A stretch of DNA of 64,000 nt, from assembly GCF_003991155.1 (NCBI RefSeq), contig NZ_CP031293.1, one strand, 5' to 3'. Position numbers: made by a program. The stretch comes from Escherichia coli. GTDB lineage: Bacteria > Pseudomonadota > Gammaproteobacteria > Enterobacterales > Enterobacteriaceae. Below are positions 22,901-25,900 of the stretch, piece after piece. Within the stretch, counting starts at the first letter, position 1; the number at the start of each line of letters is the position of its first letter.

Positions 22901-25900
22901 AAGGCGTTTATTACCGAGCAGTTTATCAACTGGTCGCTCTCTGACTCGGTCACGCGCGTGGTGTTGACGATTCCGGCCCCTGCCGATGCCAACAGTGAAG
23001 AAGTGACGGAAATCCTGCTCACCGCAGCGCGTCGCTGCTCGCTGGTGATCGACAACCCGGCACCGGAAGTCTTCCTGGTGGATCTGCAACAGGGGATTCA
23101 GATTTTCGAGCTGCGTATTTACGCCGCTGAGATGGGTCACCGTATGCCGCTACGCCATGAGATCCACCAGCTAATTCTGGCAGGCTTCCATGCCCACGGT
23201 ATCGATATGCCATTCCCGCCCTTCCAGATGCGTCTGGAAAGCCTCAACGGTAAACAAACGGGGAGAACGCTGACGTCTGCGGGCAAAGGTCGTCAGGCGG
23301 GAAGTTTATAAGGTTTTGTAGCCGGATAGTCTCATCCGGCTCACCAACAAAACAGATAGCGCAGGGAAAACTGCCACAGCCAATAGAAGAGCATTATTGA
23401 AATAACAAAATATTGCCAAAGAGAGTGCTGTTTCTTCCAAATAACAGCATAAATATATGGGATGAATAATGGTAAGGTCATTATAATACCAACTGGGCGA
23501 ATATCATCATTCTCAAGATATGTCATAACATCACAAACATTATTAATTCCTCTACCGTCGATAAACCACTCTTTGTCTTGAACAGATAAAAAATCTATCC
23601 AAAATATGCTTATAACAAACCAGATAAGGTTAAGGGAAAATGATTTCCAGTTCATCATAGATTATTCATTATTTTCATTAAAGCAGTTTTCTTTTCAAGA
23701 ATACGTCGACCATATTCACTGTATTCTCTCTGATGGGATCCTTTCGGTGCTGCAATGGAGTCTATAATATCTTGTTTATTTCTTTCAATACCACGGTTGT
23801 ATCGGGAGCCGACTACAATTAACTGCTCATCCGTTAAATTAGTGGTGTCACCTATTTCCGGATAGTCATAATGTATAAGGTCTCGTAAATGAAATGCTAC
23901 CACTCTAATGTTGAAGCGGTCATTTAGTAAGCACTGGGAAAGTTGGAACTGCTCAAAGGATGACAAAAGATCTGGATGTATCCCTATAGTCCTGGCTGCA
24001 ACGCCTAACTGTATTGCGACAGAACCGACTGAAGTAGAGTTTGAGTAGGTATTGCCTCCTCTCTTTGAAACGGCCTCTAGGATTATTTTTAATTGCAGCA
24101 CCCCCACTGGTTTAAATCTTTCTGGCATTCCGCCAACCTCAGCAGCCGCAACGCCCGCAAGTAATAATAACGGGATTTGCGCCTCTTTGGCATATTGCCA
24201 CAACATATCACGGTGATAAATCAACCATGATGTTTTATATAACCATAAGTGTGCAGTCCCCGTGCTGAATGTCCAATTAGTCGGAAGAAAACGCCATCGA
24301 AAATAATCAATGCCATTCCATTTAGGAAAGCCTAATTCATCAACTTCGCAAAAAATAAGATTATTCATTTAAAGTCCCTTATTAAAATCATTCCCAGAAT
24401 GAAGAATAGTACTATCATCAGAAAAACTGATTTGTGATGGGACAGACAAAAAATATAAAAAAGGGTTCGACTTAAGATAATCAAGATAAAACATATATAC
24501 CCAATAAACCTCAAGATGCGGGTGTGAGCACCTGAAAGTGATCGTTAATTCGGGATGTCAGAGAGTCCGCTATATCCGGCAGCGTCTGGTTAAAAAAGAC
24601 AGAAAAACGGGATACATTATATTCATGAATGGTTTTATATTCGCAGATTAGCGGTGACGTCAGTGCTTTCAGATTCAGCGCCCCCATGATATTCAGGCGT
24701 GTGCGGCAGCCTGTTGTTTTTACTGCTTTTTTCTGGCCTTTACGTATCCAGCCATAGCTGATTTTAGTGGCCTGAGTCGGATGGACTCCATCAATAAAAA
24801 GAACCGGTTCATCACCCACAGTTATTTTCAGTTCCTCATAATATTCAATGAATTGCCTTTGTTTCTCTTCACTGAATTTATGGGGGACGCCTGACGGTTT
24901 TTTGTAGGTGAAACCATTACGATGCAGCCACTTATTCATCCCCGGAATGCTGAAAATGATGTTCCATGTCCGGGTGATAAACGCAATAACATCGCGGGTA
25001 TGGTGAAATAAATTATCGGATAACTGGCTGATTAAAAGGCCGTTTGTTCAGCACTGAGTTTGCTGTCTGAGCCGCCGTTTTCGGGCTTCAGTTTTCCTTT
25101 ATTCAGGAATTCGCTGATATGGTGATCAATCGTTGTCTGATGCAAGCGTAAAGCCTGAGCAATCATGGCAGAACTCCAGCCTTCGGAAACCAGAAGAATG
25201 GCTTTAATACGATCTCTGACTCGCCCGTCACGACTGGAATCATGAAGGCGTTCAAGTTCAGCTTTTTGTTGCTCAGTAATGAATATTTTCATGTTGGACA
25301 GCATGATCTTCTGTTGCTGAAAAATCAAGCATCTTCAATGATCACGGGTATATAAGGTGAATATTTATTGTTTTTAATATAAAAATCGCTTGCCCAACTT
25401 ACAGAGTGACTGCAAGCTGGATAATATACTCGTCATACTTCAGAACGGTAAGCAAACGGGGTGAACGCTGACCTCTGCGGCTAAAGCGCGCCAGGACGGC
25501 GGTATATAAGGTTTTGTAGCAGGATGGTCTCATCCGGCTACAAACAAAACTGATAGCGCAGAAAAAACTGCCACAGCCAGTAGCCGAAAATCACAAGCGC
25601 GGTGGCATACATAAACCAGCCGCGTTTTTTTCGCCACAAAGCGAACCAGAGAAAAGGGAAAAAGAGCGGTAACGTCATTATCACACCGACATCGCGGGTA
25701 TCATCATTTTCCAGATACTCCAGCACATGGCAGATATTTTTAACCCCACCTTCATCAATCATCCACTCTTTGTCCAGCGTGGAAGTGATGACTATCTAGG
25801 GGATCGCTACAACAAACCAGATGCAGCATAAGACAAACGTGCGCGCACTCATAAGATAACCCGTAGTTTAATTTCGCTATAGCGCATACGAAATCCCACT

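Follow-up and report, generated by a model that had tools for sequence, protein, structure and literature searches.

Is the short open reading frame (ORF) of 74 amino acids that lies next to yjeM in a 64,000-nucleotide stretch of Escherichia coli DNA (NCBI RefSeq assembly GCF_003991155.1, contig NZ_CP031293.1) a truncated extra gene copy, a decaying pseudogene or a shortened member of the YjeO family that still works? The question arose from a sequence-only reading of this stretch, which is termed the window hereafter and whose coordinates are used throughout. The ORF was described there as an orphan, 5'-truncated paralog of a 105-amino-acid YjeO-family protein encoded nearby, which could be either a decaying pseudogene or a shortened variant. 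The analysis reported here indicates that the 74-aa ORF is most probably the readable rest of the resident yjeO, a young nonsense pseudogene that has become fixed in a single, widely distributed lineage of E. coli. In addition, we outline the neighbourhood of the gene and discuss a candidate function for YjeO proteins in interbacterial competition.

The resident yjeO and its amber codon

The 74-aa ORF (25538-25762, minus strand) can be aligned without gaps to residues 33-104 of the 105-aa protein (identity at 37 of 72 positions, 51%; BLASTP, E 2e-28). The relationship with the C-terminal part of that protein, for which the conserved segments YLENDD, MTLPLF and WLWQF had been put forward and are confirmed here, lies far beyond chance. 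The ORF scores 102.3 bits (E 2.4e-29) against the Pfam family DUF2645 (PF10840), covering profile positions 26-98 of 98, and the 105-aa protein reaches 101 bits, at a gathering cut-off of 25 bits. NCBIfam held no model that was matched by any of the five proteins tested.

Translation further upstream confirmed the in-frame TAG located 12 codons 5' of the ATG of the 74-aa ORF, and past this stop the yjeO frame continues for 18 sense codons (MSARTFVLCCIWFVVAIP) to its own ATG at 25850-25852. As judged by translation, by the K-12 yjeO position and by alignment with the alleles of K-12, A10, VCSW7 and GF3-3, the interval 25538-25852 (minus strand) holds a complete yjeO of 104 codons plus stop. Its lone defect and sole inactivating change is a G>A transition, which replaces TGG (Trp19) by the amber codon TAG at 25796-25798 (minus strand; "cta" on the plus strand). 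The amber codon separates an N-terminal stub of 18 codons (25799-25852, minus strand), comprising the original ATG and most of the first transmembrane segment (TM1), from the 74-aa ORF, which corresponds to codons 31-104 and encodes the acidic loop, TM2, the basic loop and TM3, but not TM1. Contrary to the proposal, the gene is not 5'-truncated and has not lost the sequence of its first transmembrane segment, since all 104 codons are present in the DNA, including the TM1 sequence upstream of the TAG. A 5' deletion of yjeO is ruled out by the presence of these 18 codons and the ATG.

Codon 19 reads TGG in VCSW7, GF3-3, A10, K-12 and ECA64, and TAG in 41 genomes. Compared with the VCSW7 allele, the yjeO of the window differs by the G>A change in codon 19, the substitution M5T and two synonymous changes, and reverting TAG to TGG restores a full-length YjeO. 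The 74-aa product falls short of the full-length DUF2645 architecture, which is composed of TM1, an acidic loop with a DD motif, TM2, a basic loop and an aromatic TM3 ending in Cys. Judged from its sequence, the resident yjeO is a family member as DNA and incomplete as a predicted product.

The assignment of this copy to the resident gene follows from its surroundings. The region 25444-25960 is colinear with the 3' end of mscM, yjeO and yjeM of K-12 (approximately 88% nucleotide identity), and therefore, the 74-aa ORF belongs to the resident yjeO. The gene order mscM / yjeO / [yjeN] / yjeM / epmA with colinear flanks, by which an ortholog is recognized, was found for the amber-stopped copy, and this positional evidence makes it the resident gene, the one that stands where K-12 has yjeO. 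The label "paralog" had been attached to the wrong copy: the amber-stopped gene occupies the K-12 yjeO site adjoining yjeM, and the additional copy is the 105-aa gene, which is located on a 2.2-kb insertion. K-12 yjeO (b4158, "YjeO family protein", DUF2645) shares with the gene of the window the position between mscM and yjeM, the frame of 104 codons and the Pfam family, and its product is 87% identical in amino acids to the repaired window frame. Unlike K-12 yjeO, the window copy harbours the amber codon 19 and M5T; furthermore, yjeN is deleted upstream of it, and the 2.2-kb insertion parts it from mscM.

Pseudogene or short functional variant

The whole arrangement (insertion plus yjeO) is present in 44 of 5,426 complete E. 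coli genomes, and 41 of these 44 carriers are 100% identical over the yjeO region, TAG included. The 41 genomes with the TAG stem from human, cattle, poultry and dog hosts as well as from wastewater and rivers, and many countries are represented. In VCSW7 and VCSW5 the insertion is accompanied by an intact 104-aa yjeO, and Escherichia sp. E13S3, which is colinear with positions 22000-27600 of the window (95.0% across 5,605 nt, a stretch that spans the insertion with its insertion sequence (IS) remnant), likewise carries an intact resident gene. Because VCSW7, VCSW5 and E13S3 combine the insertion with an intact yjeO, the sequence comparison indicates that the tandem arrangement is old and compatible with an intact resident yjeO. 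The amber codon is best read as a recent event in one lineage. In GF3-3 the resident yjeO was independently frameshifted by single-base deletions (annotated frameshift; locus L004, 4839-5151), while the insertion and an intact yjeN were retained. The closest allele without the insertion, found in ECA64 (92.8%), is intact and directly adjoins mscM. Overall, megablast detected yjeO in 3,029 of the 5,426 complete genomes, and consequently the remainder either are without yjeO or carry a more divergent form.

The suggestion of a decaying pseudogene gains support from these alleles: the frame is intact save the TAG, intact versions exist in VCSW7 and E13S3, and 41 genomes share the stop. Compared with the intact genes of VCSW7, ECA64, E13S3, K-12 and A10 the stop is premature, it is real in the population, and it removes a conserved part of the protein. 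Translation from the native ATG would end after 18 residues, and the 74-aa frame could arise solely by inefficient internal initiation or by re-initiation at Met31. The product would be devoid of TM1, the strongest hydrophobic segment of YjeO (Kyte-Doolittle maximum over 17 residues, 2.80). When 71 distinct DUF2645 sequences, drawn from some 60 species, were aligned, an N-terminal hydrophobic segment was seen in every sequence except the defective pair of this very locus, i.e., the 74-aa ORF and the GF3-3 frameshift. Within a collection of 5.8 billion proteins, 104-aa forms constitute large clusters (1,071, 218 and 88 members) and a 100-aa form has 301 members, while forms of 62-78 aa are singletons. 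We infer that the 74-aa product is likely non-functional.

Several observations weigh against a pseudogene. Internal initiation at Met31 is conceivable, the motif AAGAG lies 3 nt upstream of this codon, and in E. coli translation is known to re-initiate when a nonsense codon is close by. Moreover, the identity of the 41 carriers leaves no time for the further decay that would prove lost constraint, and RefSeq annotates the 74-aa ORF as a normal coding sequence, the "YjeO family protein" WP_000564601.1, with no pseudogene flag.

One rival is a short functional variant, in which a 74-aa protein starting at Met31 would translocate its acidic N-tail, insert TM2 and TM3 into the membrane and keep the function of YjeO. 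Short acidic N-tails can translocate without a signal sequence by YidC-type insertion. The 74-aa frame retains all strongly conserved motifs outside TM1 (the IKNxC region, DD50-51, YWLWQF and C103) and scores 102 bits against DUF2645; yet TM1 itself is conserved in all aligned members save the two defective copies mentioned above, and short forms elsewhere are singletons. While no second lesion has accumulated in the frame, the missing decay is explained by the youth of a lineage whose 41 genomes are 100% identical, and the same copy was independently disrupted in GF3-3. Sequence inspection found no convincing ribosome-binding site, that is, no good Shine-Dalgarno sequence at proper spacing before Met31, and a consensus scan of positions 23200-26100 for promoters and terminators yielded nothing specific for the 74-aa ORF, with counts near the shuffled expectation. 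The shortened functional variant is disfavoured by this evidence and appears unlikely, and we adhere to a young nonsense pseudogene. An artefact of sequencing or assembly in an otherwise intact gene, conceivable given the one-base difference from the intact allele and named beforehand as the outcome that would overturn the observation, is excluded for practical purposes, because 41 complete genomes of differing hosts, sources and countries share the identical TAG.

By itself, the inactivated yjeO is an ordinary finding: a defective allele of a known family (YjeO/DUF2645) and a routine nonsense pseudogene. It nevertheless raises an annotation issue, since RefSeq lists the fragment as an ordinary family protein instead of a pseudogene.

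The 2.2-kb insertion and its surroundings

The gene order of the locus is mscM, the 105-aa DUF2645 gene, a 237-aa gene, an IS630/ISEc40-like element, the 74-aa ORF, yjeM, epmA and frdA. According to the gene calls of the window, mscM extends from 19988 to 23311 on the plus strand. The insertion comprises 2,198 bp with a GC content of 32-44%, compared to a background of about 55%, and its cargo consists of the 105-aa DUF2645 gene, the 237-aa gene with a predicted lysozyme fold and the decayed ISEc40-like element. Imperfect direct repeats of 141 nt (23246-23386 and 25444-25583, 84-89% identity) border the insertion, and each of them unites the last ~66 nt of mscM with a terminator hairpin and the final 46 nt of yjeO. 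The repeat alignment shows that the left copy (23246-23386, plus strand) carries the functional 3' end of mscM and the hairpin, together with the E. coli-yjeO-like 46 nt that close the 105-aa gene. In the right copy (25444-25583, plus strand), which shows 84% and 89% identity to its counterpart, the last ~66 nt of mscM survive as a decayed remnant, accompanied by the hairpin and by the resident yjeO's 3' end.

The 105-aa gene (23341-23658, minus strand), delineated by ORF call, BLASTP, Pfam and its Citrobacter counterpart, is an intact second copy of the YjeO family and the partner of the 237-aa gene, for which it is a candidate cognate immunity gene. It is chimeric: Citrobacter-like for most of its length, it turns E. 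coli-yjeO-like in its final 46 nt. The 237-aa gene (23655-24368, minus strand) overlaps the 105-aa gene by ATGA. Its product, listed as a "hypothetical protein", shares 89% identity with a protein of Citrobacter, which is found at the same mscM-yjeM locus with a DUF2645 partner of its own (L006). Featuring a predicted lysozyme/SLT fold and no signal peptide, the 237-aa protein is a candidate peptidoglycan glycosidase effector of an Hcp-dependent type VI secretion system (T6SS). The ISEc40-like element of the IS630 family (24493-25376, minus strand) is frameshifted and internally deleted, and matches intact E. coli copies in two pieces with 98% identity, being ~245 bp shorter than these. The same IS remnant occurs in Escherichia sp. 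E13S3, implying that its decay is older than the split of these lineages or than the transfer between them.

On the other side of the resident gene, the yjeO-yjeM spacer (25853-25949, minus strand) harbours the last ~17 codons of the deleted yjeN (ELVGFRMRYSEIK...), which is all that the window retains of this gene, as indicated by alignment with the yjeN-yjeO region of K-12 (yjeN at 2906-3220 of the K-12 locus L002). The deletion created a spurious 67-aa ORF (25849-26052), which emerges from the 3' end of yjeM and ends overlapping the yjeO ATG; yjeM itself runs from 25950 on the minus strand. The yjeN deletion is also found in A10, VCSW7 and ECA64. YjeN matched no entry of Pfam, NCBIfam or PHROG, and the idea that it represents a remnant of the 237-aa effector was ruled out (hhalign probability 0.3).

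A candidate immunity function for YjeO

The 237-aa protein belongs to a family spread among Enterobacterales, with further members in Variovorax, Advenella and Methyloglobulus. According to an AlphaFold2 (AF2) model (predicted local distance difference test (pLDDT), 87.6), it has a lysozyme/lytic-transglycosylase (SLT) fold, the closest relative being the T6SS effector Tse3. The family alignment reveals an invariant Glu77, S113/G115/Q120 and R-Y-N-R-G at 189-193, which resemble SLT motifs, and Foldseek lists the same families at weak E-values. As the protein is without an N-terminal hydrophobic segment, it carries no signal peptide; the family combines, by the model, a toxic enzymatic fold with the lack of a Sec signal, a combination that marks it as an effector candidate.

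To assess the genomic context of this family, we surveyed 60 homologous loci in species-representative genomes and scored T6SS linkage on the presence of hcp. In 56 loci, the effector match is followed at a distance of -22 to +62 nt by the start of a DUF2645 ORF; the count rises to 58 if two over-long ORF calls with early starts are included. The gene hcp is an immediate neighbour in 22 of the 60 loci, lying upstream in the same orientation in 9 and just downstream in convergent orientation in 13, and tandem extra DUF2645 copies are present in four. Conserved adjacency and linkage to hcp are the attributes of a T6SS effector-immunity pair. In some Pectobacterium and Photorhabdus loci (L063, 6766-7771; L047, L061 and L064), two or three tandem DUF2645 genes follow the effector gene beside hcp.

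From its short, basic N-terminus, YjeO proceeds through TM1 to an acidic loop, and TM2 is linked by a WRKKRGW loop to a third, aromatic segment; the C-terminal Cys is invariant. Residues 24-55 include nine acidic and three basic residues, a near-invariant DD motif and a conserved Cys. Owing to the positive-inside rule (an acidic loop, then WRKKRGW), the acidic loop and the C-terminus are predicted to be periplasmic, which suggests a topology with three hydrophobic segments and a periplasmic loop of residues ~25-55. YjeO proteins would thus be small inner-membrane proteins exposing an acidic, Cys-containing loop to the periplasm, where a peptidoglycan-cleaving effector acts, and there YjeO would meet the effector and act as an immunity protein against the adjacent, Hcp-linked muramidase-like T6SS protein. 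Adjacency, hcp linkage, fold and topology, taken together, are characteristic of an effector-immunity pair linked to Hcp, in which YjeO is the putative immunity protein.

K-12 has yjeN and yjeO but no effector gene, and its yjeO, like that of most E. coli, would then be an orphan immunity gene directed against the effectors of other bacteria. The term "orphan" given to the copy of the window is nothing peculiar to it and applies to yjeO in all E. coli without the upstream 237-aa gene. Some Salmonella carry yjeO alone, without the effector gene, and in E. coli and Salmonella the lone gene is under purifying selection in the absence of a muralytic partner. The E. coli yjeO comprises at least two protein allele classes (K-12/A10 versus ECA64/VCSW7/window), which differ in about 13% of the residues, nearly all of them in codons 1-55; the second class is also found in cryptic-clade Escherichia. 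Within an allele class, the ratio of non-synonymous to synonymous substitution rates (dN/dS) of intact alleles amounts to 0.03-0.08, indicative of purifying selection. Between classes it is 0.3-0.4 in codons 1-55 versus 0.08 or less in codons 56-104, small numbers that are compatible with divergence in an effector-facing part. Loss of yjeO in the window would remove the protection against one effector variant, and the 105-aa copy would still cover the strain's own effector.

On balance, we lean towards the view that YjeO (DUF2645) is the membrane immunity protein of a previously undescribed family of Hcp-linked, muramidase-like T6SS effectors, which extends across Enterobacterales and some Betaproteobacteria. 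On this view, K-12, most E. coli and Salmonella would retain yjeO as an orphan, the two divergent E. coli allele classes would correspond to different effector specificities, and the amber allele would be a natural loss-of-immunity variant. For K-12, a 2.6-fold induction of yjeO by sigma-E has been reported (PMC2731931). A literature search returned no mention of DUF2645 or PF10840 and no function for yjeO, which appeared only in gene lists, and the T6SS effector-mining literature examined does not mention the 237-aa/DUF2645 family.

Some of the results speak against an immunity function. The Foldseek E-values of the 237-aa protein are weak (0.02-0.2), no hcp was found near the pair between yjeM and mscM in Enterobacteriaceae, and the protein matches phrog_11932 (E 9e-25), a PHROG of unknown function. 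The latter two observations would suit a different origin of the pair, either as a phage-derived, lysis-type cassette of a muralytic enzyme and a small holin-like membrane protein, or as a housekeeping enzyme that remodels the cell wall, paired with a membrane regulator; the amber codon would then hit a holin-like or regulator gene. A signal-less muralytic enzyme beside a protein of about 100 aa with three hydrophobic segments indeed resembles an endolysin/class-I holin pair. However, hcp directly adjoins the pair in 22 of 60 loci and in two orientations, no phage genes were seen beside it in the loci read, and YjeO has no PHROG match. A phage origin of the 237-aa gene was rejected, as tblastn against 50,697 phage genomes gave no match, and the PHROG of unknown function was the only trace. 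Furthermore, tandem DUF2645 arrays are typical of immunity genes, and an orphan yjeO kept under purifying selection without a muralytic partner fits immunity better than a holin. The lysis or housekeeping pair is accordingly rated improbable, and an immunity function of YjeO remains our preferred interpretation.

The surrounding evidence provides a testable candidate function for yjeO, a K-12 gene of unknown function, and for DUF2645: immunity against a lysozyme-fold effector that is often encoded beside hcp. The E. coli population supplies natural controls for this purpose, namely intact, amber and frameshifted yjeO alleles, with and without the effector pair.

Among known systems, the proposed pair may be compared to Tse3/Tsi3 (Tge1/Tgi1) and other T6SS effector-immunity pairs with a peptidoglycan glycoside hydrolase. 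In its modelled fold, the 237-aa family is related to Tge1 (Tse3) and, at a greater distance, to Tge2. Against PDB sequences, the effector-family profile gave chance-level matches only (best E 0.2), and thus no sequence similarity to any solved structure, Tge1 and Tge2 included. Tsi3 is reportedly a soluble periplasmic protein or a lipoprotein, whereas YjeO is a predicted integral membrane protein with three hydrophobic segments. Finally, as a putative immunity gene, yjeO resembles the orphan immunity genes of T6SS, contact-dependent inhibition (CDI) and Rhs systems, in that a lone gene is retained under purifying selection, forms divergent allele classes and has extra tandem copies in some genomes. 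In contrast to these orphans, the copy in the window is not retained but inactivated.

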